Shown here: piece by piece, positions 1 to 45,195 of the stretch
How positions within the stretch are numbered: position 1 is the first letter of the stretch
How the letters are laid out: every line of letters starts with the position of its first letter
Virus record (IMG/VR): IMGVR_UViG_2630968933_000007
Location: 1-64,000 of that record
DNA length: 64,000 nucleotides
DNA from: a virus
Taxonomy: Duplodnaviria; Heunggongvirae; Uroviricota; Caudoviricetes
Reading direction: 5' to 3' (one strand)
Translations under genes and position numbers: made by a program
Notes under the pieces: generated by a model
What the model was told of the DNA's origin: nothing
Databases searched by the model: none
The model's input: the letters and a program-made list of their open reading frames with translations, nothing else

Positions 1-564
1 CACGACATAATGCAGGCCTTCACGCTTCATACGTGGGTCATAGTTGGCAAAGTACCAGGCATCTTTTCGCGTCGCCCACATGCTGAATTGCACCTGGGCC
101 ATGTAAGCTGATTTTATTGCCTCGAAACCACCGAGCCGGAATTTCATGAAATCCCGGGAGGTAAACGGACATTTCAGCTCAAGGCCTTTACCGTCACTGC
201 ATAAACCATCGGGAGAGCAGGCTGTACGCATACTTTCGTCACGATAGATGATCGGGGATTCAGTAACATTCACGCCGGAAGTAAACTCAAACAGAGCTCT
301 GGCGTCGTTCTCGTACTGTTTTCCCCATGCCAGGGCTTTGGCGTTAACTTCCGGGGCCACACCCGTGCAGACCTCAGCCAGCAGGGTGTGGAAGTAGGAC
401 ATTTTCATGTCAGGCCATTTCTTTCCTGAGCGGGGTTTTGCTATCACGTTGTGAACTTCTGAAGCGGTGATGACGCTGAGCCGTAATTTGTGCCACGCAT
501 CATCCCCCTGTTCGACAGCTCTCACGTCGATCCCTGTACGTTGCAGGATAATGTCCGGTGTCAT
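1..564 (-). CDS. exo: Lambda-type exonuclease (Red alpha), N-terminal 188 codons; gene runs off the window start
   Basis: Reverse complement of 541-564 reads ATG ACA CCG GAC ATT ATC CTG CAA (MTPDIILQ, lambda Exo N-terminus); ATG overlaps bet stop (ATGA). Confidence 0.9.
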
Positions 565-1346
565 GCTGCTACCTTCTGCTCTGTGACTTTCTGTTTCAGG
601 AATCCAAGAACCTTCACAGCTTCAGCCTGTGTTAGTTCTGAAGATGTGTAAATGTTGCGGCGAAAAATCTGGGAACAGAGCGGCAACAGGTCGTCATCCC
701 ACGTTTTTTCCATGGAAGTAAGAAGGGCGTTAATTTCCGACATGGTTTCTTCGTTAACCGGGGTGATGTCGCGTTCCGGCTGACGTTCTGTAGTATATGC
801 AGTATTTTCGACAATACGCTCGGCTTCATCCTTGTCATAGATGCCAGCAAATCCGAAGGCCAGGCGAGCACACTGAATCATGGCTTTGTGCCGTAACATC
901 CGTTTGGGATGCGACTGCCACGGTCCGGTGATTTCTCTGCCTTCGCGGGTTTTGAATGGTGCGCGGCGACATTCATCCATCCACTCGGTAACGCAGATCG
1001 GGTGATTGCGATCTTTGCGGTAAATCCGGCATGTACAGGACTCATTGTCCTGCTCAAAGTCCATGCCATCAAACTGCTGGTTTTCATTGATAATGCGGGA
1101 CCAGCCATCAACGCCAACCACCGGAACGATGCCGTTCTGCTTGTCAGGGAAGGCGTAAATTTCTTTCGTCCAGGGATTAAGGCCGTACTGGTTGGCGACG
1201 ATCAACAATGCGATAAATTGCGCATCGCTGGCATCACCTTTAAATGCCGTCTGGCGAAGAGTGGTGATTAGTTCCTGTGGGTCGACAGAATCCATGCCGA
1301 CACGTTCAGCCAGCTTCCCTGCCAGCGTTGCGAGTGCTGTACTCAT
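561..1346 (-). CDS. bet: Bet single-strand annealing recombinase (Red beta)
   Basis: 261-aa [24 protein letters not shown]... matches lambda Bet over full length as recalled. Confidence 0.95.
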
Positions 1347-1351
1347 CCGTT

Positions 1352-1648
1352 TTATACCTCTGAATCAATATTAATTTGGTGACGGGCGATGGTTTCAGCC
1401 ATGTAGCGGATGTGTTCTGCCATGCGTTCCTGAAAATCGACATCGTCATCAAATGCACGGGAAATAGCTTTTTTGCTGGCCCCGTGACGTTGCAGATTAT
1501 CGATGCATAGCGATTCAAACAGGTGTTGGGGCAGACCTTTTTCCAGGTCGTCTGCCAGCTCAGCTTCAGTTTCTTCACGGGCAATTTGCTGGTAGTGTCG
1601 TGCCCATGACTGCTCTTCAATGCGATCGGGGATAAGCCAGGCATTCAT
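1352..1648 (-). CDS. gam: Gam, RecBCD inhibitor (short 98-aa form)
   Basis: ORF ...[16 protein letters not shown]...[19 protein letters not shown] matches lambda Gam; start overlaps stop of upstream gene. Confidence 0.9.
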
Positions 1649-3594
1649 GATTTATCACCTCCGAAATTTTCAAGCCTGTTGGCAATCATGATGGCGATAT
1701 CAGGGATTGCTGGCGCTGTGGCTATACATGCGGGGTTGGCGCACAAACCATAGACGGCGGCAATCACGAGCTGTCTTTTCCAGTCGAGAGTTACTGGCTC
1801 AGAATTGGCGTCATCGCCGGACGTATCACTGCCTGGCTCGTTCTGAACAACGGTTTCGCCCTCCTGAGCGGCATCAACAGAGTTTTCCTGAATGATCTTC
1901 TCCTCAGTTTTTTTTTCCAGCTCCGGTTGCGCTACTGGCCCTGGCTGTTGCTCTTCTGACCCGTTTTGTTGCGTATCCGGGCTGTTTTGTCCCGCTTCTG
2001 GGGCAATTTGTTCCACTTTGGACTGATTCTGGTCCTCAGTGTCGCGAGTCTGGATCCCCTTCACCCACTTCGGATCAGCAGGGTTACTGATGCCTTCAAC
2101 GAATTCTCCACGCGAGGCAGCCAGTAATTTGTCGGCATCGACTGGATTTTTTGGGGGGATGTTTTCCCTGGCTTTATTGAGTTCCTCCCTCAGTTCCTGG
2201 TATTTCGTTTCTACAGATGAGACATTTTCCAGTGATTGCGTGTCCTCATTATGTTTAACTGGAATTTCTTCCACTGATTCAGGCGCTGCCTGTTCATTAG
2301 CCATTGTGTCCGATGCTTGTTGCTTTTCTTCATCGCCATGTTTTCCTTCTGCTGTTCCGCGCTGCGGCATCGGTGCTGATGAGCGACCGCAGGCAATTTC
2401 CACGATTTCCGGATCCGGGTTAGCGTGATCGGTTTCGGTCAACACTTTGTTGAGATATTCAGTCACGCGTGCCGGGATGGCCTCAATGCCGATTGGTGCT
2501 TCTTTCACGGAAGCCACCACAATGGCGCGGGAATAATCCAGCCCACCGGGCATGGCGATAAATTTGTCGCGAAAAACAGAAAAGGGCGGCTTATTCTCTG
2601 ACACGATTTCTTCAACGCGTTTTGCGTGTGCTGGGTGCAGGTTATAAATATCCACATCCATTGAACGGGCCAGAACGCCGGTGGCTACATCTCGTGCGAG
2701 TGATGTCTTATCATGTTTGAATCCTTCACCACGATCGGTAAGATTTCCGCCGCCAGCGTTAGCACCGGAAGGCGTACGGGTAATGCCTGAAACATAATTT
2801 CCGTTCTGCCATTCTTTTGTCAGCAGGCCCTGATCAAGGTAGTCAGTTTTCATCCAGGTGGAAATGAACTTGTCGAATTCAGCCGGGCTGATGCGATGAT
2901 TTGCAGAGTGGGGGAATGCTTTCCCTACAGATTCAGCCAGGCGACTAAGGTGATAGTTCGTCAGTTTATCCAGTTCATGATGTGCGGCGCGCACAGCAGT
3001 AAGCAGGCTCTGAAGGTAACTGTCCTCTGTGTCCATCTCCATACGGATCACGTTATTGCGTTGTTCTGGTGTGGCGTGATGCCGGTATTTTCCATCTTCA
3101 TCCTTGCTGAAGAAGAAGAGGTGAAGGAAGCGATGAGTAAGGCTCAGAGTGGCGACGGGAATTTCACACTCAGAACAGTCATCGTCGCTGTCCGGGGATT
3201 CGCTTTTCTCCACATCATCCGGAATAGTTCCGTCCGGGTCATCGTTGTCATCGCCAGCAGTTGTGGCATCTTCACCGTTGATGTTGTCATTGAAGGATAT
3301 AGCCATCATGGTGATGCCATCTTCCCCGCCTTTTTCATAGCGGTTGCAGAATTCAGTATCAAACACGCCTTCCGGTGGAAGGTCATTCACGACGGGGAAA
3401 TTTACGCGAACGGGTTTTTTGAAATCATCCTCGTCGTAGCCTGCATCGTCCATGGCTGCAATGCAGCGGGAAACTGCGACAGAAAGTTTTCTGGCCTCGG
3501 TCCAGAAAAAACCGCCTTTGATGCCAAGGCGTTTTCTGACTTTATCGTTTTTTGCTTCGCAGTGTAGTGCAAAAGTCTGTTTATCAGCGCTCAT
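1645..3594 (-). CDS. Hypothetical 649-aa early-left-operon protein, highly acidic segments, no recognised domain
   Basis: Long ORF translationally coupled to gam (ATGA overlap at 1645-1648); Asp/Glu-rich stretches ([30 protein letters not shown]). Confidence 0.65.
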
Positions 3595-3701
3595 TGTATT
3601 TAAACCTCTGGCTGGATTAGAATTAGCGGCCCTTTGTCTGATTTCTCCGAATACGGTGACGCAGGGAGAAATCCGGTAGCCTGCGCTGCCGGATTTTTAT
3701 T

Positions 3702-4088
3702 TCAGTGGAAGGTTGCCTGGTTTGCTGTTTTGTGAGTTGTTTTTCCCTTTTCGTGCTGGCATTCAGGGCAGTCGCACTCAGAATTTTCTCTTGCAAACTC
3801 AAGAGCCTGCGCCAGTGTATGGATTTGTTGTGCTCCAATGTTGCTTCTGACGACTTCACATGCAGCATGAATATATGGGCTTGGTGTTTTGCCATTTAAC
3901 CCACATAAAACAAAACGACTGTCCTTATATTCGTTATTTCCAACTTCTGTAAGTACTGAAAAAGAAAATACAAAGTCGATTTTGTATTCTTTGCATATTT
4001 TACTGATGCGTTCTGCAATTTCTTTGACTTCATTTATTGCATCAGGACTGGTTTCGGAAAATATTTCATTTTGCGCAAGTTCTTTCAT
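3702..4088 (-). CDS. Hypothetical protein, Cys-rich C-terminus (CDCPECQHEKGK)
   Basis: 128-aa ORF in pL operon orientation. Confidence 0.5.
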   Translation of the reverse strand: MKELAQNEIFSETSPDAINEVKEIAERISKICKEYKIDFVFSFSVLTEVGNNEYKDSRFVLCGLNGKTPSPYIHAACEVVRSNIGAQQIHTLAQALEFARENSECDCPECQHEKGKTTHKTANQATFH

Positions 4089-4171
4089 TTTTATTTTTCC
4101 GTGGTTGATAATTAATGCGGTTTTATTTCGGCTTGTCTGTTACAGATATGGAAGGTGTATTTTATTACTCG

Positions 4172-4411
4172 TCACAACGACGCTGCTTTTACGGGTAAGC
4201 CATCGCGCCCGATGAAAACTTTAATCATGCAGTCGGTAATGCATGTTTTTGTTGTGAAGTTACGAATATAGAGTTTTCTCTTTTCAATATTGTTTGCTGA
4301 AGCGATATATGTCCGACCTTCATGAAGAACATAATCGCCAGGCGTCACGCACTGACGTGGTATTTCATCAGTTCCGAAGTGATGAGCAATCATAATTATC
4401 TCCATTTTCAC
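4172..4411 (-). CDS. Hypothetical small protein
   Basis: 79-aa ORF in pL operon orientation. Confidence 0.45.
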
Positions 4412-7812: not shown

Positions 7813-8529
<717 letters not shown>

Positions 8530-8626: not shown

Positions 8627-8827
8627 ATGGAACAACGCATAACCCTGAAAGATTATGCAATACGCTTTGGGCAAACCAAGACGGCTAAAGATCTCGGCGT
8701 ATATCAAAGCGCGATTAACAAGGCCATTCATGCAGGCCGAAAGATTTTTTTAACTATAAACGCTGATGGAAGCGTTTATGCGGAAGAAATAAAGCCCTTC
8801 CCAAGTAACAAAAAAACAACTGCATAA
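8627..8827 (+). CDS. cro: Cro repressor
   Basis: 66-aa [56 protein letters not shown] matches lambda Cro; SD taaggagg. Confidence 0.95.
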
Positions 8828-8965: not shown

Positions 8966-9262
8966 ATGACACAAACAAGTTACAGCAAACTATCCCAGCG
9001 TGACGTTGATCGCGCAGAAACAGATTTACTCATCAACCTGTCAGCTCTGACGCAAAGGGGACTGGCAAAGATGATTGGCTGCCATGAATCGAAGGTCAGT
9101 CGTACCGACTGGCGATACATCGCGGCGATTTTATGCGCGTTCCAGATGGCATCTGATATCAGTCCGATCAGCCGGGCTTTCCAGCATGCCATTAACGTTC
9201 ATGCAAATAAAAAACGTCCGGTTGGGGCCGGACGTTCTGAGCAAATCCTGATGAATATCTGA
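8966..9262 (+). CDS. cII: CII-like transcriptional activator
   Basis: 98-aa ORF in cII position; C-terminal ...ANKKRP...RSEQI.M resembles lambda CII. Confidence 0.65.
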   Translation: MTQTSYSKLSQRDVDRAETDLLINLSALTQRGLAKMIGCHESKVSRTDWRYIAAILCAFQMASDISPISRAFQHAINVHANKKRPVGAGRSEQILMNI

Positions 9263-9324
9263 TATTCAGGCAGGGCATGGAGCAATACACGGGAATAATT
9301 CTGCCACATCTGGAAGAATTTCGC

Positions 9325-9395
9325 CAGCAACAACACCAACCGCAGCAGCCTGAAGCCGATTGGGTTAACCCGGGAGATACCGGGACCGTCTGCGG
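9325..9395. repeat. Direct repeat copy A (~71 bp); partner copy B at 10086-10178
   Basis: agcaacaacaccaaccgcagcagcctgaagccgatt...gggttaacccgggagataccgggaccgtctgcgg repeated with few mismatches plus a 23-bp insertion in copy B. Confidence 0.9.
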
Positions 9396-9425
9396 TATGG
9401 AGTAAATCTTGTATGCGAGGGGACT

Positions 9426-10004
9426 ATGCGTAATTACGCAACAATTTCACCTCAGTTCTGGTTAGGCGATACAGGGCGAAAACTAAGGAAGTCTGGTCCG
9501 GAATGTATGGTAGTGGCGTTGTATATGATGACCTCGCCTCATTCCAATATGCTGGGCCTTTATTACCTGCCTGTTTTGTACATTGCTCACGAAACCGGAC
9601 TTGCTCCTGAAGGGGCTTCTAAGGGGCTTCAAATGGCTTGCGAGGCTGGTTTTTGCAGCTATGACCATGATTCTGAGGTTGTATGGGTGCATGAAATGGC
9701 AGCATGGCAGGTTGGTGAATCGCTGAAACCTGGCGATAACCGTTGTGCTGGGGTAAGAAATGAATATTCCGCGTTGCTGGAAAATCCTTTTTTATCATCC
9801 TTTTATGATAGATATAAGGATGATTTCCACCTGGATGTCAGACGTGAATCATGTCGGAAAATTGAAGCCCCTTCAGAGCCCCTTCAGAGCCCCTTTCAAG
9901 CCAAGAACAGGAACAGGAACAGGAACAGGAAAGGGATAAAACCCTTCTGGTCCATGGCGAAAAAATCGCCACGGACCCACAGGGGGATTTTTGTCCTGTT
10001 CTGA
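9426..10004 (+). CDS. Replication initiator, putative origin-binding N-terminal part (ORF terminates after iteron array)
   Basis: 192-aa ORF in O-gene position; 3' end contains the tandem repeats and encodes (NR)n. Confidence 0.5.
   Translation: MRNYATISPQFWLGDTGRKLRKSGPECMVVALYMMTSPHSNMLGLYYLPVLYIAHETGLAPEGASKGLQMACEAGFCSYDHDSEVVWVHEMAAWQVGESLKPGDNRCAGVRNEYSALLENPFLSSFYDRYKDDFHLDVRRESCRKIEAPSEPLQSPFQAKNRNRNRNRKGIKPFWSMAKKSPRTHRGIFVLF
9866..9934. repeat. Putative ori iterons: 11-bp unit agccccttcag x3 then hexamer gaacag x4
   Basis: Tandem repeats read directly at 9866-9900 and 9905-9928, inside the replication gene as in lambda O. Confidence 0.6.
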
Positions 10005-10057
10005 CTGAACGTCCAGGACCAGATGGCACGACACCGGAAGCAGATTCCGGGCGTTGT

Positions 10058-10519
10058 GTGCAGCAGGTGCTGATCGTCGAACCGGAGCAACAACGCCAAC
10101 CGCAGCAGCCTGAAGCCGATTCCGCGATGAGCGGGAAGCCGATTGGGTTAACCCGGGCGATGCCGGGACCGTCTGCGGGACGAGTTGATTATCCTGACGT
10201 GTTCGAACGGGTCTGGCGTGAATATCCGCATCGGGCAGGGTCAAACCCGAAGAAATCCGCGTTCAATGCCTGGAGGGCCAGATTACGCGAAGGGGTGTCA
10301 CCGGATGTCGTGCTGGATGGCGTGAGGCGTTACGCAAGATACCTGGAGGCTACCGGGAAAGCGGGAACTGAATTTGTTCAGCAGGCATCGACGTTTTTTG
10401 GCCCGAACAGGAATTTCGAAAATCCGTGGTCGCTGCCGAAGGTTGGCGCAGTCAGCCTGCGTTGCGTGAATCACATTTCTGAACCGGACACCGAAATTCC
10501 GCCGGGTTTCAGGGGGTAA
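10058..10519 (+). CDS. DnaT-like primosomal/replisome-organiser domain protein (reading frame open upstream to 9866)
   Basis: C-terminus ...ISEPDTEIPPGFRG resembles E. coli DnaT C-terminus (…SEPDSQIPPGFRG); listed start is GTG; frame has no stop back to 9866. Confidence 0.6.
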   Translation: MQQVLIVEPEQQRQPQQPEADSAMSGKPIGLTRAMPGPSAGRVDYPDVFERVWREYPHRAGSNPKKSAFNAWRARLREGVSPDVVLDGVRRYARYLEATGKAGTEFVQQASTFFGPNRNFENPWSLPKVGAVSLRCVNHISEPDTEIPPGFRG

Positions 10520-10525
10520 TCAGCC

Positions 10526-11266
10526 ATGAAAAACATTTCGACAGGAGGGATTCTTGAACGGGTGCGCCGTCTGGCACCACCGCACGTGGCAGCACCGTTC
10601 CGGACGACCGACGAATGGCGGGAATGGCAACTGGCTGAGGGCCGGAAGCGCAGCGAGGAAGTTAACCGCCAGAATCACCAGACGCGGGTTGAAAAAATCC
10701 TGAATCGTTCGGGCATCCAGCCGCTTCACAGGAAGTGCTCATTCGGGAACTACCGGGTGCAGAACGACGGTCAGCGCCATGCTCTGAGCCAGGCGAAATC
10801 CATTGTCGATGAATTGATGACCGGTTATACAAACTTCGTGTTCAGCGGGAATCCGGGAACCGGAAAAAATCATCTGGCGGCGGCTGTGGGTAATCGTCTG
10901 CTGAAGGCCGGTAAATCCGTGATAGTGGTCACCGTGGCGGATGTGATGAGCGCGTTACATGCCAGCTATGACGACGGACTGTCAGGGGAAAAATTTTTGC
11001 GTGAACTGTGCGAAGTGGACCTCCTGGTTCTTGACGAAATTGGCATCCAGCGTGAGACGAAAAACGAGCAGGTGGTACTGCACCAGATTGTTGACCGCCG
11101 GACGGCATCACTGCGCAGTGTCGGGATGCTGACAAACCTGAATCATGCCGCAATGAGCACGCTTCTTGGTGAGAGGATTATGGACCGGATGACCATGAAC
11201 GGTGGTCGTTGGGTGAATTTTAACTGGGAGAGCTGGCGGTCAAACGTTGGACGTCAGGGTATGTGA
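10526..11266 (+). CDS. DnaC-like helicase loader (IstB-type ATPase)
   Basis: Walker A GNPGTGKNHLAAA, Walker B DLLVLDEIG; follows DnaT-like gene. Confidence 0.85.
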   Translation: MKNISTGGILERVRRLAPPHVAAPFRTTDEWREWQLAEGRKRSEEVNRQNHQTRVEKILNRSGIQPLHRKCSFGNYRVQNDGQRHALSQAKSIVDELMTGYTNFVFSGNPGTGKNHLAAAVGNRLLKAGKSVIVVTVADVMSALHASYDDGLSGEKFLRELCEVDLLVLDEIGIQRETKNEQVVLHQIVDRRTASLRSVGMLTNLNHAAMSTLLGERIMDRMTMNGGRWVNFNWESWRSNVGRQGM

Positions 11267-13514: not shown

Positions 13515-13823
13515 TTAAACGAAGCGGATCTGGAGTTTTTTCCCTGTAGCACGGGCGAATTTTTTCAGTGTGGCAAATGATGGGCCGCTTGTACCTGATG
13601 CAAGATTGCTTTCCATTCTGGTTATCGCAGTCGCTTTTGTTCCCATACGTTCAGCAACTTCAGCCTGGGTTAAGCCAGCTTCTTTTCGTGCTGCCAGCAT
13701 TTCATCAAGTAGTGCGAATTCATCGGCGATGGCGTCGTATTCTGCTTTTACTGCGGGGTTAGACAACATTTTTTCTACCATATCATCGTGTGTCATGGTA
13801 GGTGGGGTACGTTTACCAGTCAT
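13515..13823 (-). CDS. HTH (XRE-type) antitoxin, HigA-like
   Basis: 102-aa ORF with HTH ...GLTQAEVAERMGTKATAITRME...; overlaps upstream toxin gene by 11 bp. Confidence 0.75.
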   Translation of the reverse strand: MTGKRTPPTMTHDDMVEKMLSNPAVKAEYDAIADEFALLDEMLAARKEAGLTQAEVAERMGTKATAITRMESNLASGTSGPSFATLKKFARATGKKLQIRFV

Positions 13824-14142
13824 GCTTAACCTCCTTCATTCTGGTTTCAGCTTTTCTAAGCTCGGCAGGTGGAGTTTTTTGCGTTTTCTTTACAAAGCTA
13901 TGCAACATAATGATTCGCTTTCCTTTTAGCGTGCAGTAAAAAACACGCCCTATGCCTTCCGAGCCCTTAAGGCGGATTTCAAACAAACCGTCGCCAAATG
14001 CCTCTGTATGCGGGGAACCAAGATTAGCTCCGTAAATACGCATTTTCTCCGTGTACCGAATGTACCGGGCTTGTAAGGTCTCAGGAAGAGAAAGGATCTC
14101 AGCTTCAACCTCGTCACTGTAGTATTCGATAATGTAGTTCAT
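13813..14142 (-). CDS. RelE/ParE-superfamily toxin, Gp49/HigB-like
   Basis: MNYIIEYY...GDGLFEIRLKG..GIGRVFYCTLKGKRIIMLHSFVKKTQKTP fits Gp49-like toxin pattern; toxin-first operon order. Confidence 0.75.
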   Translation of the reverse strand: MNYIIEYYSDEVEAEILSLPETLQARYIRYTEKMRIYGANLGSPHTEAFGDGLFEIRLKGSEGIGRVFYCTLKGKRIIMLHSFVKKTQKTPPAELRKAETRMKEVKHDW

Positions 14143-23647: not shown

Positions 23648-24499
23648 ATGGCAAAGCTGGACTGGAAAAAACTGGAGCAGGCATTCCGACGCGAACATGC
23701 CAGAACTGGCATAAAACTTCAGGACTGGTGTCGACAGAACAATATCTGCTATGGCACGGCTCGTCGGTACATAAAACTGCGCAAAAACTCCCCCAAAAAT
23801 ACAGAGGAAAGTGCGCAGAAAAATGCGCAAAAAAGTGCGCAAATTGACACTCAAAAAAGCGCACAAAAAAATGCGCATGGAGCTGATGACGAGTCCAGTA
23901 ATGACGAGTCTTACGGCGATGATGGCAGTGATGAAAAATGCGCAAAAAACTGCGCAAATTCGGCAGAAACGAAACGCAACAGCAGATCGGGCAATCCTCA
24001 CCCCGTTGCCCGGTTTAGCGACCGTAACACCCACGCCGTGAGACACCGTGGATATGCGAAGTATCTTGAGGCAGATAACCTCATGGATGATGCGTCCGAT
24101 ATGGTGCTGTTCGATGAACTGGTGTTCACCCGTGCCCGCGCACTTTCAGTAACAGGAACACTGAAAAAAATGTTCGCCGACCTGAAAGAGGCGGCTGACG
24201 TGGAAACCCGTGTTGCCCTGTACGACAAAATACTTAAAGCCGAACAGGCTCTTGACCGGAATATTGCCCGTATCGAGTCAATTGAACGCTCATTGCTGAC
24301 GCTGGACGTTCTGGCGGAAACAGCACCAAAACTTCGTGCTGACCGGGAAAGAATCAACGCCGCCAGAGATAAACTCAGAGCGGAAACCGATATTCTGACC
24401 AGCCAGCGCCGGGGGGTTATTACGCCAGTCAGTGACATCGTGTCATCGCTGCATGAAATGAGTAATTCGGGGAGACTGGATGACATTCCGGAAGAATGA
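23648..24499 (+). CDS. Terminase small subunit (putative)
   Basis: HTH-like N-terminus, position directly upstream of terminase large subunit; internal repeat array. Confidence 0.6.
   Translation: MAKLDWKKLEQAFRREHARTGIKLQDWCRQNNICYGTARRYIKLRKNSPKNTEESAQKNAQKSAQIDTQKSAQKNAHGADDESSNDESYGDDGSDEKCAKNCANSAETKRNSRSGNPHPVARFSDRNTHAVRHRGYAKYLEADNLMDDASDMVLFDELVFTRARALSVTGTLKKMFADLKEAADVETRVALYDKILKAEQALDRNIARIESIERSLLTLDVLAETAPKLRADRERINAARDKLRAETDILTSQRRGVITPVSDIVSSLHEMSNSGRLDDIPEE
23778..23960 (+). repeat. Array of ~8 TGCGCA + A-tract repeats inside the terS gene (candidate pac/terminase recognition site)
   Basis: ctgcgcaaaaa, gtgcgcagaaaaa, tgcgcaaaaaa, gtgcgcaaatt, agcgcacaaaaaaa, tgcgcatgg, atgcgcaaaaaa, ctgcgcaaatt. 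Confidence 0.6.
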
Positions 24500-26186
24500 A
24501 CCGCGATGTGATGAACCGTCAGAAATGACCGGGACCGAACAACGTCTGTTCATCATGACTAAACTGAGCAATCCCTGGTGGCGCCTCAATCATCTCTACA
24601 AAATACAGAACGAAAAAGGTGAACTGGTCACCTTCAGAATGCGACCGGCGCAACGTCAGTTGTTTCGTAACATGCATAATAAAAACATTATCCTGAAAGC
24701 GCGCCAGCTGGGATTTTCCACAGCCATTGATATTTATCTTCTCGACCAGGCATTATTCATTCCGCATCTCAAATGCGGGATTGTCGCTCAGGATAAACAG
24801 GCTGCCAGTGAAATTTTCCGCACCAAAATTGCTGTACCGTTTGATCATCTTCCTGACTGGCTGAGAGCCTCATTCACCATCGTTGAACGTCGTAGCGGAG
24901 CCAGCGGTGGCTATATCCTGTTTGGTCACGGCTCGAGTATCCAGGTGGCAACCTCATTCCGTTCAGGTACGGTGCAGCGCCTGCATATCTCAGAGCACGG
25001 CAAAATTTGCGCAAAATATCCGGCTAAGGCGAAAGAACTGCGAACCGGTACACTTAATGCCGTCTCTGATGAGTGCATTATCTTTGATGAATCCACTGCT
25101 GAAGGTGTGGGTGGCGATTTTTACGAGATGAGTAACCGGGCACAGGAAATCACTGCATCAGGGCTGGCGCTGACGCCACAGGATTATAAATTCCATTTTT
25201 ACGCCTGGTGGCAGGATCTCAAATACAGCGCCAGAGTGCCGGAAAGCGGACTTAAGCTGTCACGGGAAAAAACAGCGTATTTTTCTGCGGTTGAAAAAGC
25301 AATGAACATCACGCTTACCGATGAGCAGAAACACTGGTACATCTGCAAGGAAACTGAACAGCGTGAGGAAATGAAGCAGGAATTTCCCTCAACGCCACAG
25401 GAGGCGTTTCTGACGTCAGGACGACGGGTGTTCAGTGCGGAAAGCACGCTGCAGGCAGAGTCATTCTGTTCGCCACCGCTGATTGTTTATGACATTGAAC
25501 CGGTTACAGGAACGAAGACCAAAGCGCAGTCTCTGCGTGACGGGAATAAAGCCGAACAGCACCGGACGCTGATGAATTATCTGCTGGTCTGGGAGCTGCC
25601 GGATCCGGATGAAGAGTATGTATGCGGAGCGGATACCGCTGAGGGGCTGGAGCACGGAGACCGCTCATCGCTGGATATCATCAGATGCAGTAATGGTGAG
25701 CAGGTGGCTCACTGGTTTGGTCATCTCGATGCGGAGCTTTTCGCTCATCTCATTGCGCAGGTCTGCCGTATGTACAACAATGCGTTTGTGGGGCCGGAGC
25801 GTAACAATCACGGACATGCCGTTATCCTGAAACTCAGGGAACTCTATCCGACGCGTTATATCTACAACGAACAGCACCTTGACCAGGCATATGACGACGA
25901 TACGCCCCGTCTTGGCTGGCTGACAACCCGCCAGAGTAAACCGGTCCTGACAGAGGGAATGAAAACGCTGCTGAATAACGGCCTGTCGGGGATCCGCTGG
26001 TCGGGCACATTATCAGAAATGAACACCTACGTTTATGACGCGAAAGGCTCCATGAATGCACAGGAAGGCTGTTTTGATGATCAGCTTATGAGCTACATGA
26101 TTGCCCAGGAGATGCGCGCCAGAATGCCGGTGAGGGTAAAACAGAAAACGGATAAACGCAGAACCACACACTGGATGGCTCACTGA
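24480..26186 (+). CDS. Terminase large subunit
   Basis: 568-aa ORF with ATPase and nuclease-like regions; follows terS. Confidence 0.85.
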   Translation: MTFRKNEPRCDEPSEMTGTEQRLFIMTKLSNPWWRLNHLYKIQNEKGELVTFRMRPAQRQLFRNMHNKNIILKARQLGFSTAIDIYLLDQALFIPHLKCGIVAQDKQAASEIFRTKIAVPFDHLPDWLRASFTIVERRSGASGGYILFGHGSSIQVATSFRSGTVQRLHISEHGKICAKYPAKAKELRTGTLNAVSDECIIFDESTAEGVGGDFYEMSNRAQEITASGLALTPQDYKFHFYAWWQDLKYSARVPESGLKLSREKTAYFSAVEKAMNITLTDEQKHWYICKETEQREEMKQEFPSTPQEAFLTSGRRVFSAESTLQAESFCSPPLIVYDIEPVTGTKTKAQSLRDGNKAEQHRTLMNYLLVWELPDPDEEYVCGADTAEGLEHGDRSSLDIIRCSNGEQVAHWFGHLDAELFAHLIAQVCRMYNNAFVGPERNNHGHAVILKLRELYPTRYIYNEQHLDQAYDDDTPRLGWLTTRQSKPVLTEGMKTLLNNGLSGIRWSGTLSEMNTYVYDAKGSMNAQEGCFDDQLMSYMIAQEMRARMPVRVKQKTDKRRTTHWMAH

Positions 26187-28330
26187 TGAAAAATGAAACT
26201 AATACCATGGCGACGAAAAACGACAACGGAGCCACGCCGCGTTTTTCTCAGCGCCAGTTACAGGCGCTTTGTTCTGATATTGACAGTCAGCCTAAATGGC
26301 GCGATGCCGCAAACAAGGCCTGTGCGTATTACGATGGTGACCAGTTGCCACCGGAAGTTCTCCAGGTGTTGAAAGATCGCGGTCAGCCGATGACCATCCA
26401 TAACCTCATCGCGCCTACCGTTGATGGTGTTCTGGGTATGGAGGCCAAAACGCGGACTGATCTGTTGGTGATATCAGATGATCCTGATGATGAAACAGAA
26501 AAACTGGCTGAAGCTATTAATGCTGAATTTGCCGATGCTTGCCGCCTTGGAAATATGAATAAAGCCCGTTCTGATGCCTATGCGGAACAAATCAAAGCGG
26601 GGCTCAGCTGGGTGGAGGTCAGACGGAACAGCGATCCGTTCGGGCCTGAGTTTAAGGTGTCTACTGTCAGCCGGAATGAAGTGTTCTGGGACTGGCTCAG
26701 CCGGGAGGCTGATTTAAGTGACTGCCGCTGGCTGATGCGCCGCCGCTGGATGGATACCGATGAGGCAAAAGCCACATTTCCGGGAATGGCTCAGGTTATC
26801 GATTATGCCATTGATGACTGGCGTGGTTTTGTCGATACCACGGTTACTGAAGGCCAGCCCAGTCCGTTGATGAGTGCATGGGAAGAGTATCAGTCATGGG
26901 ATCGACAGCAGAACGAATGGCTTCAGCGTGAACGCCGTCGTGTGCTGCTTCAGGTGGTTTATTACCGTACATTCGAGCGTCTTCCGGTGATTGAACTCAG
27001 TAATGGACGGGTGGTGGCCTTTGATAAAAATAATCTGATGCATGCGGTGGCTGTGGCATCCGGGCGGGTGCAGGTGAGAGTCGGGCGGGTAAGTCGTATT
27101 CGTGAAGCCTGGTTTGTGGGACCGCACTTTATTGTGGATCGCCCCTGTAGTGCGCCGCAGGGGATGTTCCCGCTGGTTCCCTTCTGGGGATACCGGAAGG
27201 ATAAAACCGGGGAGCCTTACGGGCTGATTTCCCGGGCCATTCCGGCACAGGATGAGGTGAATTTTCGTCGTATAAAACTGACGTGGTTGCTTCAGGCCAA
27301 ACGCGTGATTATGGACGAGGATGCCACCCAGTTGTCAGACAACGAGCTGATGGAGCAGATCGAGCGTCCGGATGGCATTATTAAACTGAATCCGGCCCGA
27401 AAAAATCAGAAAAGCGTTGCTGATGTTTTCCGGGTTGAACAGGATTTTCAGGTTGCCAGCCAGCAGTTTCAGGTCATGCAGGAGTCGGAAAAACTTATCC
27501 AGGACACGATGGGGGTTTATTCCGCATTTCTCGGGCAGGATTCAAATGCATCGTCCGGTGTGGCGATCAGCAACCTGGTGGAGCAGGGAGCCACAACCCT
27601 TGCCGAAATCAACGATAACTACCAGTTTGCCTGCCAGCAGGTGGGAAGGCTGTTGCTCGCTTATCTTCTTGATGACCTGAAAAAGCGGCGCAATCATGCG
27701 GTGGTGATTAATCGCGATGATCGTCAGCGTCGCCAGACCATTGTCCTCAATGCTGAAGGTGATAATGGTGAACTGACCAATGATATTTCAAGGTTAAATA
27801 CACATATTGCGCTGGCTCCTGTTCAGCAGACACCGGCGTTTAAGGCACAGCTTGCACAGAGAATGTCAGAGGTTATTCAGGGGCTGCCGCCTCAGGTGCA
27901 GGCTGTTGTGCTCGATCTGTGGGTTAATCTTCTGGATGTGCCGCAGAAACAGGAATTTGTCGAACGTATTCGTGCGGCGCTGGGGACGCCAAAATCACCG
28001 GATGAGATGACTCCGGAAGAGCAGGAAGCGGCAGCACAACAGCAGGCGCTGGAGCAACAGCAGGCAGAACTTCAGATGCGCGAAATGACAGGCCGGGTGG
28101 CTAAACTGGAAGCAGAAGCTGCCAGGGCACGCGCGGCTGCGCAACGGGATAATGCTGGCGCACAACGGGATGTCGCCGCGGCACAGGGACAGCGTTATGT
28201 GGATGCGCTTAACCAGGCACATACGGCAGAAATCATTACCGGCATACAGAATATGGAACAGGAGCAGGAAGTTCTTCAGCAACAGATGCTGCATACACTA
28301 CAACAGCGGATGCATGAAATGCCGCTCTGA
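26186..28330 (+). CDS. Portal protein (714 aa)
   Basis: Large ORF coupled to terL stop (ATGA), coiled-coil Gln/Ala-rich C-terminus. Confidence 0.8.
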   Translation: MKNETNTMATKNDNGATPRFSQRQLQALCSDIDSQPKWRDAANKACAYYDGDQLPPEVLQVLKDRGQPMTIHNLIAPTVDGVLGMEAKTRTDLLVISDDPDDETEKLAEAINAEFADACRLGNMNKARSDAYAEQIKAGLSWVEVRRNSDPFGPEFKVSTVSRNEVFWDWLSREADLSDCRWLMRRRWMDTDEAKATFPGMAQVIDYAIDDWRGFVDTTVTEGQPSPLMSAWEEYQSWDRQQNEWLQRERRRVLLQVVYYRTFERLPVIELSNGRVVAFDKNNLMHAVAVASGRVQVRVGRVSRIREAWFVGPHFIVDRPCSAPQGMFPLVPFWGYRKDKTGEPYGLISRAIPAQDEVNFRRIKLTWLLQAKRVIMDEDATQLSDNELMEQIERPDGIIKLNPARKNQKSVADVFRVEQDFQVASQQFQVMQESEKLIQDTMGVYSAFLGQDSNASSGVAISNLVEQGATTLAEINDNYQFACQQVGRLLLAYLLDDLKKRRNHAVVINRDDRQRRQTIVLNAEGDNGELTNDISRLNTHIALAPVQQTPAFKAQLAQRMSEVIQGLPPQVQAVVLDLWVNLLDVPQKQEFVERIRAALGTPKSPDEMTPEEQEAAAQQQALEQQQAELQMREMTGRVAKLEAEAARARAAAQRDNAGAQRDVAAAQGQRYVDALNQAHTAEIITGIQNMEQEQEVLQQQMLHTLQQRMHEMPL

Positions 28331-28348
28331 AAATCCTGAACTTAACGG

Positions 28349-28374
28349 AACCCCGTCATCGTACGGGGTTTTTT
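28349..28374 (+). terminator. Intrinsic terminator (ccccgt...acgggg + T6)
   Basis: Hairpin followed by tttttt after portal gene. Confidence 0.6.
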
Positions 28375-28487
28375 GTTTCCGGAGATAAGCGTTCCGGGAG
28401 CGGTGCGCTTATTCGCGGGGGCAGCGATAAGCCTTATTTACTCAACCATTCGGATCTGTCCGATAAACAGACCATGCGGAGTTATTT

Positions 28488-41180: not shown

Positions 41181-41462
41181 TTGGCAGAATATGGTTTTGC
41201 AATATACAACAGAAACAATGTTAATGTTACGGGCGTGCTTACTCCCATATTTTTCCTGGACAGGTTTACGGCGGAGTCGGGATCAAAAACGTATACGAAT
41301 AAACCAGAAGGGAAAACATTGCAGGCAGTCTGTTCATTATTTCCGTGGAATAATGTATTTAAGGACCGGAAAGTACCGAAGATAACCATTAATGGCAATA
41401 CGGTGACGTGGTCGAATCTTGAGCAGGGGATGGGGTCATATATTTATACATTCTGGGGGTGA
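41181..41462 (+). CDS. Hypothetical protein
   Basis: 93-aa ORF. Confidence 0.4.
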   Translation: MAEYGFAIYNRNNVNVTGVLTPIFFLDRFTAESGSKTYTNKPEGKTLQAVCSLFPWNNVFKDRKVPKITINGNTVTWSNLEQGMGSYIYTFWG

Positions 41463-42085
41463 GTTGTATGTATGGTTTAAGCATTACGAAACCAGATGGC
41501 AGCTTGTGGATAAGCCCGGGGTTTACGCCTCAGTGTCTGATCAATAAGGGAACTATTCCGGCGACTGAGAAGGCTTTTTTTAAAACATCAATCCCGTCAG
41601 GAAAAAGTTGTTTTTTCTTTATCAGAACAGAGAAAAAGGCCGATGTCATGTACACACATGAACAGATTGATGGATATCATGCCTTAAGGCTTCATCAAAT
41701 TGTCAGGGGAACGAATCCTGGTGTTACGACTGTTTATGCTTTTGCGAATATGGTTACTCAACCTTCTGAGTATGGTATTGCCATGTATAACCCGTCGGGT
41801 GAGATGATTTACCATGGCGAAATGATGCTGCTTGACGCGAAGTTAATACCTGTTGATATCAAATTTGAAAAAGATCTCGGATATCCATGTGCAATTATGC
41901 CTGCACTGGTTGGGTATTATAACTGGCAGCGTACACCTTATGACCGACCGATTTACACCACATCAACGGGGGCTACAGGAAATAAAATATATTCCTGTGA
42001 GCATTATTCCGGTCGTGCAACATGGGATATTCGGAAGCCGTATATAGATAAAGTGCTGGTCATTAATTCATCAATATATGACTGA
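41459..42085 (+). CDS. Hypothetical protein
   Basis: 208-aa ORF. Confidence 0.45.
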   Translation: MSCMYGLSITKPDGSLWISPGFTPQCLINKGTIPATEKAFFKTSIPSGKSCFFFIRTEKKADVMYTHEQIDGYHALRLHQIVRGTNPGVTTVYAFANMVTQPSEYGIAMYNPSGEMIYHGEMMLLDAKLIPVDIKFEKDLGYPCAIMPALVGYYNWQRTPYDRPIYTTSTGATGNKIYSCEHYSGRATWDIRKPYIDKVLVINSSIYD

Positions 42086-42171
42086 TATGCCTGTCAGTAT
42101 GAATATTAAGTAATAAAACTAAATTCATCTTAGATAATACGGGGTTATTTTATTATAGGAAAAGTCTAAAA

Positions 42172-42906
42172 ATGAAACATGCCAGAATTATTTTTGCGTG
42201 CACAACTTTTGTGATGAGTTTTGTAGCAGCCCCTGCCTGTGCAGCACAAGGTGACAGTACAGTTTCTTTCGGATACGCTCATCTTCAGCTCTCTGGACTG
42301 AACAATTTTGTTAAGGATTTAAGTCTTTATAATCTTGATACTTTTAACCGTTTTACAAACAGACACTACTTCAATTCAGGCGAATATGCAGATGCTTCTG
42401 TCCGGGGGCATGATGGCAAAGGCAAATCTCCTCAGGGGATGAGCATCAGGTATCGTTATGAGATAACGGATGAGATTGGTGTTATAACATCTTTTACATG
42501 GGCGCGTTCTATGACTAATGCGCAGGCATTTATTGATATTAACCCAGGAGATGAATCCAGAGAGGTTAAAAATCCGGCAGCTTCAGCGAGAACTGATATC
42601 AGGGCTAATTACTGGAGTCTACTATCCGGTCCTTCGTGGCGGTTTAACGAATACCTCAGTGTGTATGCAATGGCTGGTATGGGGGTTGAAAAAGTCACCA
42701 CTGACTTGAAAATTAACGACAATCTTAATCATGGTGCCGGTAGTTTTTCTGAAAGCAAGAGTACTAAAAAAACAGCACTTGCATGGGCTGCTGGTGCACA
42801 ATTTAACCTGAATGAAAGTGTTGCTATGGATGTCGCGTATGAAAGCTCCGGATCCGGTGACTGGCGCACGAGTGGGGTTATTGTAGGCATTGGCCTGAAA
42901 TTCTGA
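42172..42906 (+). CDS. lom: Lom/Ail/PagC-family outer-membrane protein
   Basis: Signal peptide; C-terminal ...ESSGSGDWRTSGVIVGIGLKF matches Lom; AT-rich upstream. Confidence 0.8.
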   Translation: MKHARIIFACTTFVMSFVAAPACAAQGDSTVSFGYAHLQLSGLNNFVKDLSLYNLDTFNRFTNRHYFNSGEYADASVRGHDGKGKSPQGMSIRYRYEITDEIGVITSFTWARSMTNAQAFIDINPGDESREVKNPAASARTDIRANYWSLLSGPSWRFNEYLSVYAMAGMGVEKVTTDLKINDNLNHGAGSFSESKSTKKTALAWAAGAQFNLNESVAMDVAYESSGSGDWRTSGVIVGIGLKF

Positions 42907-42928
42907 GTAATACCCGACAACATGTCAT

Positions 42929-42953
42929 AACCCGCTGTGATGGCGGGTTTTTT
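42929..42953 (+). terminator. Intrinsic terminator after lom
   Basis: cccgc...gcggg stem + tttttt. Confidence 0.65.
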
Positions 42954-43136
42954 GTTGCCCGTGCAGGGCAAAAATCGTAGATTATGCGCGGGTGCCTTTC
43001 GGCTGATGGCTGGAAGGTGAACCTGAAGGCCTGATGTGGAAAGGCCCCGAGTCAACTTTAACGTTAACCCGAGGCCCTGACACTTCTTTCCTTGAAAGTA
43101 GAAGGTTAGCGCCTCTCCACTCAGGAGGCAAGCGCT

Positions 43137-43275
43137 ATGTCGCAAAAATCGCTTATCACCGTCACAATTTGCATGACGGTAATCTTCACCATCTGGATGT
43201 TACACGGTTCGCTGTGTGAGTTCCGGCTGAATTTGTGGGGAGCGGAGTTTGCGGCGTTCTTACAGTGTAAGCAGT
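43137..43275 (+). CDS. hok: Hok/Gef-family type I toxin (45 aa), below the ORF-track size cutoff
   Basis: MSQKSLITVTICMTVIFTIWMLHGSLCEFRLNLWGAEFAAFLQCKQ: TM segment then SLCE.R...G.E.AAF pattern; SD aggagg; downstream GAAA-loop hairpin 43282-43303. Confidence 0.7.
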
Positions 43276-43333
43276 AGGAAAACCGCGACGGGGACGAAAG
43301 TCCCCGTCAACTGGTTGCTGAGGTTCAGCCGAT

Positions 43334-43735
43334 ATGGCACCCGTTTCAGGTGAGAGAATGGACGACAAAATTCTCCGGTATATGCAGCGTGTTGTGAGAA
43401 ATTCCCGCAACCCTGAATTTATGAATGAAGTTAAAGACGCCTGCCTTAAAAAGCAGGCGTTTTGCTTTGAAGCGCCGGATGGTTTTCTGGTGCTGCGTTC
43501 TGTGCTCAGTGACGATGGTATCCCTTATGTTCTGGTGTTACTGGGCGTGTGTACGGGGAGTAAGAGTGTTGAGCGTTATCTGCCGGAGGTGAAGACATTA
43601 ACCCGCCTGGCTGGCGGACGCTGGGCCGAATTTCATACGGCAAGACGAGGATTTATCCGGCTGGGAAAACGTCTGGGCTTTGAGCGAATGCCGGATGATG
43701 AGGATGGCTTCATGGTGTTCAGGATAGCAGTCTGA
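43334..43735 (+). CDS. Hypothetical protein
   Basis: 133-aa ORF. Confidence 0.5.
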   Translation: MAPVSGERMDDKILRYMQRVVRNSRNPEFMNEVKDACLKKQAFCFEAPDGFLVLRSVLSDDGIPYVLVLLGVCTGSKSVERYLPEVKTLTRLAGGRWAEFHTARRGFIRLGKRLGFERMPDDEDGFMVFRIAV

Positions 43736-43828: not shown

Positions 43829-44485
43829 ATGGGCGGAAGTAAAGGTGGTGGTGATACCAAAGTAAAACCAACAGCAGCGCAAATAGCACAGGAAGAGGTG
43901 GCCTGGAAAGGGTGGCAGGATTACAAAAATATTCTCCGTCCGGCAGAAGATAACTTCATGAAAAAGGTCGATGACCTTAACAGTGAGCAGCAGTACGAAA
44001 ATATCGCAGGCACAACAAATCTTGGGTATCAGAAACAGTTTGGTGAAGCGCGAAGGGAGCTGGCGGGTAATCTTGCTCAGTCCGGCGTTGACCCATCCAG
44101 TGGTCGTTTTAATGCAGTAATGGATGCAAATCAAAGCGACCAGGTGATCGGGCAGATTGACACGACCACACGGGGGCAGGTATCGCAGGCAGATAAATAT
44201 ATTGCCGGGCTACAGGATGTTGCGGCTCTCGGTTCCGGTCAGAAGGCAGATGCGTTACAGAGTTTTAACTCCCTGGCTGACAGCAGTCTGGCAAAAGCCA
44301 AATCGGACGCACAGGCTGCGTTTACGAAACAGCAGGGGCGAGCCTCTCTTGTTGGCGCTGGTCTGGGTGCGGTTGGTGCATATGCGATGCATAAGGCTGG
44401 CGGTAGCGGAGGAAGTGGCGGTGCTAAAACACCTGGCACCGGCGCTAATGCCATTCAGCATCAGGCTCAGAACTGGAGACTGTGA
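43829..44485 (+). CDS. Hypothetical virion/internal protein
   Basis: 218-aa ORF, Gly-rich C-terminus. Confidence 0.45.
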   Translation: MGGSKGGGDTKVKPTAAQIAQEEVAWKGWQDYKNILRPAEDNFMKKVDDLNSEQQYENIAGTTNLGYQKQFGEARRELAGNLAQSGVDPSSGRFNAVMDANQSDQVIGQIDTTTRGQVSQADKYIAGLQDVAALGSGQKADALQSFNSLADSSLAKAKSDAQAAFTKQQGRASLVGAGLGAVGAYAMHKAGGSGGSGGAKTPGTGANAIQHQAQNWRL

Positions 44486-44934
44486 TTATGGAGTACGGTA
44501 AATACGAAACTCTCGCAAGGGCTGGTTATTCAGGAGCAGCCCGCCCACAGGGTGACTGGCAGACGTCAGCAGCGCTGACACGCCAACAATACGACGACTG
44601 GCGAACCAGATATTTGCCCCGCGTGGCAAGGCTGGCTGACCTTGGCGAGAACAACAGCCTGATGAATGCGCAGCTTGCCCGGGTGGGCGGCCTTGCCACT
44701 TCCAGTCTCCGTACAGCGCAGATGGCGCAGGATAACCAGATGGCACGATATGGCGTTAACCGACCTGATAATCCCAACAGTAATACGCTGGGGTTACGTA
44801 ATGCCCTGGCAATTGCTGGCGCGAAAAATGGTATCCGTGAAGCAGAGCAGGATCGTCAGATGAACATACTGACGGGGGCTTCTGCACCTGCAAGACAGCA
44901 ACTGAGTGTTGGCGGACAACTGGTGTCAGCTTAA
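44482..44934 (+). CDS. Hypothetical virion/internal protein
   Basis: 150-aa ORF, coupled. Confidence 0.45.
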   Translation: MIMEYGKYETLARAGYSGAARPQGDWQTSAALTRQQYDDWRTRYLPRVARLADLGENNSLMNAQLARVGGLATSSLRTAQMAQDNQMARYGVNRPDNPNSNTLGLRNALAIAGAKNGIREAEQDRQMNILTGASAPARQQLSVGGQLVSA

Positions 44935-44943
44935 GGAGGAAAT

Positions 44944-45195
44944 ATGGGATACGGTTTACTGGATATTGCGAATCAGTCACGGCGTGAGGCATTACAGGGA
45001 ATAAGTGACGCCGACAGGCGACGTGAAGAAATTGAGGCTGCTAACAAGCAGATGGCGGCGCAACAGAAAGCGCAGAACAAGCAGAATATCGGTACGGGCA
45101 TTGGTACGGGGGCGGCTATGGGCGCTGCCGTTGGTGGTCTCCCCGGTGCGGCTATTGGTGCTGTCATAGGTGGTCTTGCTGGCTCGTTGTTTTAA
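44944..45195 (+). CDS. Hypothetical small protein with Gly-rich membrane-like C-terminus
   Basis: 83-aa ORF. Confidence 0.45.
   Translation: MGYGLLDIANQSRREALQGISDADRRREEIEAANKQMAAQQKAQNKQNIGTGIGTGAAMGAAVGGLPGAAIGAVIGGLAGSLF

Follow-up and report, generated by a model that had tools for sequence, protein, structure and literature searches.

An Eru4-type replication initiator gene with putative intragenic iterons, broken by one extra 11-bp unit in an Escherichia coli prophage

The initiator protein O of phage lambda binds the origin through its N-terminal domain and recruits the helicase loader through its C-terminal domain, the two being joined by a flexible linker. The lambda origin repeats lie, together with an A+T-rich region, within the initiator gene itself near the domain boundary, the gene following cII. 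The initiator G38P of Bacillus phage SPP1 similarly binds repeated boxes (oriL) within its own gene. In this article, I will discuss a gene that appears to share this arrangement, a replication initiator that is found split in two in a 64,000-nucleotide stretch of tailed-phage DNA (IMG/VR record IMGVR_UViG_2630968933_000007, positions 1 to 64,000; this whole stretch is called the window, and coordinates refer to it unless stated otherwise). The gene belongs to the Eru4 module, whose representative is Shigella phage 75/02 Stx (NC_029120); the paper defining it states that there is no knowledge of the replication proteins in Eru phages (Fagerlund et al., 2022; PMC8951638).

Over the small open reading frame (ORF) ahead of the initiator, the initiator itself and the DnaC-like loader gene, the window is 97-99% identical in DNA to 75/02 Stx, and the gene order (cI, cro, cII, small ORF, initiator, DnaC-like ATPase, DUF1627) is that of the Eru4 family. 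It differs from that phage in an extra 11-bp unit within the initiator gene, a 90-bp deletion in the small ORF, a lambda-type cI/cro immunity region and its location in a probiotic strain, and the origin that I propose below is absent from the published description of Eru4 (PMC8951638). The modules Eru1-3 of Llarena et al. (2021) were also considered for the window and set aside as different modules. The window gene is an Eru4-type initiator and a functional analogue of lambda O: it has the same predicted layout, intragenic repeats, a low-G+C stretch and the same place after cII. Lambda has four 19-bp iterons in one cluster; in the window family the units measure 11 bp and form two pairs separated by about 255 bp, one pair falling within the codons of the DNA-binding domain itself; the helicase-loader partner is a DnaC/IstB-type ATPase rather than lambda P; and the protein gives no match to Pfam Phage_rep_O even at E<=1, which means that there is no sequence-family relationship. 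What the window contains is very probably an Eru4-type initiator with intragenic iterons that was broken by a +11-bp duplication in a decaying prophage, and not a regulatory device. The parts of the broken gene are as follows.

9426 to 10519, plus strand: the replication-initiator pseudogene in its entirety (Eru4 type), its frame broken by an extra 11 bp (same bounds in the RefSeq annotation of E. coli G1/2)
9426 to 10004, plus strand: ORF1, 192 aa
10058 to 10519, plus strand: ORF2, GTG start, 153 aa
9426 to 9884, plus strand: native-frame N-terminal part, comprising the N-domain of about 145 aa and the first codons of the second 11-bp array
9877 to 9887: extra 11-bp unit causing the frameshift, missing from the four compared phages (placement at 9866 to 9876 is equally valid)
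9885 to 10004, plus strand: out-of-frame tail of ORF1, QSPFQAKNRNRNRNRKG...VLF and then a stop, from comparison of the ORF1 translation with the intact protein
9866 to 10519, plus strand: native frame of the linker and C-terminal domain, free of stops in translation

The two ORFs can be regarded as one gene because their relatives are single genes and deleting one repeat unit restores the frame. Removal of 9877-9887 in silico yields a single 1083-nt ORF of 360 aa, identical at 357 of 360 positions to the protein of phage PhiR5_2, and in PhiR5_2, 75/02 Stx, phiSTEC1589-Stx1c and POCJ13, where the region is 97-99% identical, one product of 358-362 aa runs from the shared ATG and covers both ORFs (the RefSeq annotation of POCJ13 uses a later start in the same frame). 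Alignment shows that these four phages differ from the window by exactly one 11-bp unit, having two copies of AGCCCCTTCAG where the window has three, and since 11 is not a multiple of three, duplication of the unit shifts the reading frame; they also differ in the number of whole hexamers, without effect on the frame, and by 90 bp in the small ORF upstream. A reading of this DNA made earlier from the sequence alone had noted the two ORFs, an 11-bp array, a hexamer array and a direct repeat, all of which are present at the positions it gave, and had proposed that loss of one unit would fuse the ORFs into a protein of about 360 aa, as the in-silico ORF and the intact alleles now bear out. Its further statement that the ORF2 frame is open back to 9866 also stands, the frame being closed upstream by the TGA at 9863-9865. 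The comparison with intact homologues that it had called for shows a single gene in every isolated phage checked, not two genes with shared boundaries. The product is likewise single across both ORFs in most of 29 IMG/VR contigs, and distant homologues, found in Klebsiella, Raoultella, Citrobacter and Salmonella and in phages of Acinetobacter, Ralstonia and E. coli, are each one protein, 284-340 aa long. In place of the uninterrupted frame of about 360 aa that is usual in the Eru4 family, the window has 192 aa plus 153 aa. Phages Fraca, CharmingMan and NK-7 were examined as possible cases of a naturally split gene; the second feature in each is a short overlap at the gene start, and each has one gene. 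Taken together, the comparison indicates that ORF1 and ORF2 are halves of one initiator gene of about 360 aa. RefSeq annotates 9426-10519 as one CDS, a 'DNA-binding protein' marked pseudo and 'frameshifted', and places the same flag on the gene in all three sister strains (G1/2, G6/7 and G8); the frameshift itself is ordinary prophage decay and was already on record.

The protein family points the same way. An intact homologue matches phrog_1701, named 'DnaD-like helicase loader', over positions 1-323 of 323 (E 6.5e-152), and the window halves divide that profile between them, ORF1 covering positions 1-169 and ORF2 positions 186-323; further matches of ORF2 are to phrog_3729 and phrog_270, each of which bears the name 'replication initiation protein', and to phrog_18526. 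No Pfam family, Phage_rep_O included, was found for the two ORFs at E<=0.1 or for the intact homologue at E<=1. The N-domain is 45-64% identical across homologues from many phyla, and its AlphaFold2 model (pLDDT 70 overall and >90 for residues 51-70) has a helix-strand-helix-helix-hairpin order of winged-helix topology, with MarR/BusR-type winged-helix regulators as best Foldseek matches (E about 0.01). The initiator N-domain of about 145 aa is accordingly modelled as a winged helix, with helix 61-73 as the predicted recognition helix of that fold.

The second part of the analysis concerns the 11-bp units, which occur in two places in the gene and are accompanied by a low-G+C spacer and a hexamer tract.

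9609 to 9630, unstranded: array 1, two tandem 11-bp units, GAAGGGGCTTC and TAAGGGGCTTC; the encoded EGASKGL lies at the beginning of predicted helix 61-73
9760 to 9839, unstranded: lowest G+C (0.32) in the composition profile of 9200-10600, between the arrays and just 5' of array 2
9794 to 9824: small palindrome (inverted repeat I10)
9864 to 9902, unstranded: array 2, inverted relative to array 1, with three tandem 11-bp units where intact relatives have two
9905 to 9931, plus strand: GAACAG hexamer tract, 4.5 copies, read natively as an (EQ)n linker and after the shift as NRNR

Tandem Repeats Finder reports the unit AGCCCCTTCAG at 9866-9895 (2.7 copies, 100% match), and the corresponding repeat family (D4) has copies at 9866, 9877 and 9888, the third of which is degenerate, 80% identical and running to 9902. 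Array 1, which forms an inverted repeat (I1) with array 2, was not mentioned in the sequence-only reading, nor was the low-G+C stretch. The motif has palindromic arms (GAAG-GGG-CTTC), the arrays are about 255 bp apart and array 2 sits at the domain boundary. With one mismatch allowed, the core 11-mer occurs in the 64-kb window only at 9609, 9620 and 9864, and since shuffled sequences give a mean of 1.1 matches and reach three in 5 of 100 cases, this count is weak by itself; the significance of the motif comes from comparative data instead. For these, one genome per species was taken, giving 36 loci that encode the N-domain at 45-64% identity and span Enterobacterales, Betaproteobacteria, Acidobacteriota, Pirellulaceae, Elusimicrobia, Binatia and others. 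The motif GAAGGGGCTTC, with at most one mismatch, occurs at gene nucleotide ~184/195 (site 1) in 28 of 34 distant loci and at ~439-462 (site 2), in either orientation, in 29 of 34, corresponding to densities of 23/kb and 9/kb against 0.09/kb in 169 kb of flanking sequence. The motif is present at both sites in phages infecting Acinetobacter (G+C 0.42) and E. coli and at site 2 in a Ralstonia phage (G+C 0.65), some of the phage copies being degenerate. In the Acinetobacter phage YMC/09/02/B1251 (L083), an additional motif pair lies at locus position 1763-1784, a short distance ahead of the initiator gene; RefSeq places the CDS start at locus position 2068, while an open frame with the conserved N-domain begins at about 1801, and the annotated start is probably too late.

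Two features of these copies suggest that it is the DNA, and not the peptide, that is being conserved. Among 19 non-enteric genes the site-1 codons are GAA in 18 of 19 cases, GGG in 30 of 33, GCT in 18 of 24 and CTT in 18 of 21, whereas in the remainder of the same N-domains they account for 43%, 20%, 10% and 10%, respectively, of the codons used for the amino acids concerned. The orientation at site 2 is minus in 17 loci and plus in 10, and the peptide changes with it (EAPSEPL as against EGASKGL) while the DNA motif is kept. Repeated copies in 11-bp phase (2 + 3 units in the window) and conservation at the level of DNA are both what an iteron origin would be expected to show, and the comparison gives strong evidence that the 11-mers are a cis-acting DNA site. 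I infer that the initiator itself binds the arrays and that, as in lambda, its gene contains the origin, with 9760-9839 as a candidate unwinding region. The earlier suggestion that the array consists of origin iterons is thereby strengthened in its comparative part, through conservation at two positions, codon constraint and orientation flips, and the part concerning binding and origin function keeps the status of a prediction. Literature searches on iterons in combination with Stx2 or O104 returned nothing, and the motif used as a search word gave only unrelated primer-type matches.

The hexamer tract differs in behaviour from the 11-bp units. Close relatives have 2-7 copies of GAACAG, always in frame, and the sister strains themselves have different numbers of whole units (4 in G1/2, 5 in G8 and 6 in G6/7), as would a fast-changing microsatellite that codes for an (EQ)n linker. 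In most of the family, site 2 is followed by an SQ(E/D)Q repeat and, in the DNA, by a GARCAR-type tract whose usual reading is (EQ)n. In two loci from metagenome-assembled genomes, one of Pirellulaceae (L038) and one of Binatia (L039), the tract is kept as DNA, (CAGGAA)n or (CAGGAG)n, and is read in another frame as GTGT... or AGAG..., with the Binatia product running to 335 aa; these may be pseudogenes or genuine alternative frames.

In its normal form, the gene encodes a protein of about 360 aa, in which the N-domain is followed by a linker of (EQ)n and proline/glutamine-rich sequence and then by a C-domain with a DnaT-like tail at its end; the initiator would bind both 11-bp arrays, placing the origin within its gene, and the C-domain would recruit the neighbouring DnaC-like loader. 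In the lineage of G1/2, G6/7 and G8, one unit of array 2 was tandemly duplicated, most simply by replication slippage or unequal exchange, and the shifted translation stops at 10004 after a nonsense tail of 40 residues, leaving the C-domain without a usable start and the prophage most likely unable to initiate its own replication. An SD-like GAGGGG precedes the ATG of ORF1, and the native C-terminal frame has no in-frame start before the GTG at 10058 and no SD-like sequence ahead of it.

Several observations weigh against this reading and temper it. The binding of the 11-mers by the N-domain, and origin activity itself, are inferred; the units are short (11 bp as opposed to the 17-22 bp of classical iterons) and few (2+2); and site 1 encodes the invariant residues E62, G63, A64, G67 and L68, so that its conservation is partly at the protein level, which the codon test handles statistically only. 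The N-domain model is of moderate quality (pLDDT 70), and its fold matches are weak (E about 0.01, TM 0.3-0.4). The numerous 'frameshifted' calls in the G1/2 assembly could partly be long-read errors, and a possible -1 slippage site, G-AAA-AAA-T, lies in the overlap at 9959-9966, where slippage could yield a little full-length protein.

The alternative that fares best, which I would nonetheless call unlikely, is that the 11-mers are not iterons at all but a repeated peptide motif, an mRNA stem formed between the arrays or autoregulatory operators. The invariant residues encoded at site 1 would suit a peptide motif, and here the constraint on synonymous positions and the change of the site-2 peptide with orientation, the DNA motif staying the same, argue the other way. 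The arrays of the window family are complementary at 88% over 26 nt and could pair in RNA; a stem is rejected as a general explanation because both arrays have the same orientation in 10 loci. Initiators commonly repress their own genes at their iterons, as in iteron plasmids, and if this were the case here, the 11-mers would still be initiator binding sites, which is compatible with origin function.

How the three-unit allele is distributed bears on all of the remaining alternatives. Among the 78-81 complete E. coli genomes with the gene, it occurs in 3, namely G1/2, G6/7 and G8 only, and the other 75 have two units, judging from match lengths. An exact-pattern scan of IMG/VR for the two junctions found the two-unit form in 29 contigs and the three-unit form in none. 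The sister strains have the extra unit and the 90-bp deletion in common and differ in hexamer number, and the exact truncated products, of 192 and 194 aa, are also present in independent drafts from 2014 (KGM69400.1 and KGM78782.1) and in Logan read assemblies. This distribution points to a single clonal mutation and not to a common state of the gene.

Similar events have occurred elsewhere in the family. A Klebsiella-type allele (P0004) has gone from two to three units at site 2, and an Eru4-type gene (L055, IMGVR_UViG_2740892231_000013) from two to three at site 1, at gene nucleotide 184 (AAGGGGCTTCT), its product ending at 103 aa; unit gain has thus broken the gene independently at least two further times besides the window lineage. 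The Pirellulaceae locus mentioned above also has three units and a 174-aa product, and several intact genes have three units at site 2 in arrays that start 12 nt later, which suggests past unit gains compensated by one extra base. Other broken alleles have homopolymer indels rather than unit gains. A separate Klebsiella-type class (P0016, P0017, P0019, P0021, P0022, P0037, P0038, P0050 and P0110), which includes complete genomes, has products of 246-259 aa that leave the frame just past '...GHGSATP' at a poly-C tract (CCACCCCCCCAG), marking either a second frameshift hot spot in the linker or a homopolymer sequencing error. Phased 11-bp sites in coding sequence thus make the gene fragile, and the pattern is the one expected of sporadic mutation, not of a maintained switch.

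It is tempting to go further. If the initiator gene contains the origin, one array occupying the codons of the DNA-reading helix, the phasing of sites every 11 bp (one helical turn) means that any change in their number breaks the frame, and a unit change might then serve as a heritable and reversible off-switch of prophage replication or leave a truncated fragment that binds the origin and hinders related phages entering the cell; I regard this extension as improbable. Still less credible is the proposal that the arrays are a slippage-driven ON/OFF contingency switch of prophage replication. The resemblance to the contingency genes of Haemophilus and Neisseria, where copy changes in tetranucleotide tracts switch the frame, is real insofar as gain or loss of a non-triplet unit necessarily shifts the frame, at least three independent gains are known (in the window lineage, P0004 and L055) and the adjoining hexamer tract varies even among sister strains. 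Unlike those genes, the window has an array of only 2-3 units, and mixed populations are not known for it; two-unit arrays give a low slippage rate, and instead of frequent ON and OFF alleles among relatives there is a rare OFF allele that occurs within a single clonal group, in 3 of about 80 genomes and in none of 29 viral contigs. All sister strains have kept three units despite the change in hexamers, the prophage has other inactivating lesions and other alleles are broken by unrelated homopolymer indels, as in random decay. The earlier claim that repeat copy number sets whether the initiator is intact is therefore true mechanically, with no sign that it is used as a switch. The repeat appears to exist for DNA binding, with the frameshift as a side effect, and prophage decay, in which the split is one of several lesions, offers the simplest reading.

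Equally hard to credit is a functional split, in which the N-terminal fragment has been kept as an origin-binding protein that, for example, excludes or represses related phages, with or without a separate C-domain. ORF1 does retain its promoter context, its SD-like sequence and the entire N-domain, and PHROGs contains an N-only family (phrog_25210) and a C-only family (phrog_18526), but such clusters are expected from pseudogenes and from partial genes at contig ends, no homologue examined in an isolated phage is split, the shifted frame yields a nonsense tail, ORF2 begins with GTG, without an SD-like sequence, 54 nt past the ORF1 stop and the allele is found in one lineage only. As for the extra unit being an assembly or sequencing artefact of an intact gene, an alternative that the sequence-only reading itself had raised and that the many 'frameshifted' phage genes in the same assembly might seem to favor, it is very unlikely and the least probable of all, because three separately assembled complete genomes with differing hexamer numbers share the unit and the truncated products recur in the 2014 drafts and in Logan, and an 11-bp tandem duplication is atypical as a platform error and, being present in drafts of 2014, is not an error of the long-read type.

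Returning to the preferred reading of a decayed initiator gene, the region upstream and the C-terminal half have features of their own.

9277 to 9405, plus strand: small ORF of 42 aa (phrog_2751), with an in-frame 90-bp deletion relative to the 72-aa phage version
9326 to 9395, unstranded: upstream copy of a direct repeat of about 71 bp, inside the small ORF
10086 to 10178, unstranded: internal counterpart of this direct repeat, located in the initiator linker and longer by 23 bp
10460 to 10516, plus strand: C-terminal tail RCVNHISEPDTEIPPGFRG, common to the C-terminus of host DnaT

The two copies of the direct repeat align in two blocks, 9326-9361 with 10086-10121 (97%) and 9347-9395 with 10130-10178 (92%), whose offsets differ by 23 bp, the internal insertion that had been described before. 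Most relatives have two upstream copies 90 bp apart, both within the 72-aa ORF, in addition to the internal one; in the window and a few other lineages the 90-bp deletion has removed one of the upstream pair. The linker segment with the internal copy is also found in the 'replisome organizer' genes of Tritos and Rac type, next to an unrelated N-domain, and the idea that the internal repeat of ~93 bp is an Eru4-specific insertion was dropped, since these initiators have an equivalent segment. Of the ~2,800 E. coli genomes with any match, many share the C-terminal module, from about 10038 on, at ~82% identity; in the 'phage replisome organizer' genes of E. coli prophages it is the C-domain and linker that are alike at about 82% DNA identity, while in the Tritos and Rac type the N-domain is unrelated to that of the window and the repeats differ. 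It had been suggested that the N-domain and origin cassette was inserted or exchanged by recombination at the ~71-bp repeat; the shared linker beside unrelated N-domains fits modular exchange, and exchange of the cassette at the linker homology is plausible as an event.

The description of ORF2 as 'DnaT-like' holds for the C-terminal tail of about 20 residues and does not extend to the rest of the protein. The tail has the consensus RD(I/V)N..SEPD..IP.GFRG in common with DnaT and, in a sequence-profile search of the PDB that found nothing else, aligns to the DnaT C-terminal domain (6aep and 2ru8, E 0.15-0.39), whereas the NCBIfam DnaT model matches residues 337-360 only, with 15.6 bits against a cut-off of 201, and E. 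coli DnaT has no overall homology to the protein. The 'primosomal protein I' annotation in some phage records stems from this tail. Since SEPD..IP.GFRG is retained in initiators whose C-domains are otherwise unrelated (alignment A4), the tail may act as a short motif at which a host or loader protein docks, and the C-domain presumably recruits the adjacent loader.

The surroundings of the gene are those of a lambdoid prophage. Positions 9263-10530 of the window match the E. coli G1/2 chromosome NZ_CP060083.1 at 100%, and the source given in that record is the faeces of a healthy individual in Germany. I take G1/2, G6/7 and G8 to be component strains of the probiotic Symbioflor 2; a literature search on a Symbioflor prophage found nothing relevant among the papers listed. 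Window positions 7.8-12 kb comprise the lambdoid immunity and replication module, and RefSeq-flagged decay lies further on.

7813 to 8526, minus strand: lambda-type cI
8627 to 8827: cro
8966 to 9262: CII-family gene
10526 to 11266, plus strand: DnaC/IstB-like helicase-loader ATPase (Pfam IstB_IS21, E 6.9e-20; Bac_DnaA ATPase, E 6.7e-08)
24301 to 30513, 41275 to 43483, 44400 to 45046 and 47101 onward: RefSeq-flagged decay stretches
41662 to 42359: IS1A, between truncated tail-region genes

Phage annotations label the counterpart of the 10526-11266 ATPase as a DnaC-like loader, and the initiator presumably works together with it. RefSeq tags the terminase, portal and N4-gp56-type capsid genes, a hypothetical gene and further genes of the G1/2 prophage as frameshifted; the prophage is either heavily decayed or flagged in part through long-read errors. 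The left arm (window 1-4400) has Rac-like recE, bet, gam and kil genes, and a RelE/ParE toxin with its helix-turn-helix (HTH) antitoxin is encoded at 13515-14142, downstream of the replication module. Within the 3' end of the cII-like gene, a strong minus-strand hairpin resembling an intrinsic terminator (9211-9238; an 11-bp stem and then a T-run) occupies the position corresponding to that at which the antisense oop RNA of lambda ends, and because of this placement an oop-like RNA is likely in the window.

The frameshift, then, is the ordinary part of these findings and was known in RefSeq, and what is modestly new is the comparative case for conserved intragenic iterons in an uncharacterised initiator family that extends across several phyla and has no Pfam model. 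For the strains themselves, the prophage of G1/2, G6/7 and G8 should be unable to replicate, which is reassuring for a probiotic strain with a prophage resembling Stx phages. For the Eru4 module of Stx1 phages, and likewise for the wider initiator family, the analysis offers a concrete origin prediction that consists of the two 11-bp arrays, the low-G+C spacer and the hexamer tract. More generally, binding sites held in phase within coding sequence would come at a cost, as the gain or loss of a site is at the same time a frameshift, and the several independently broken alleles of this family show it.

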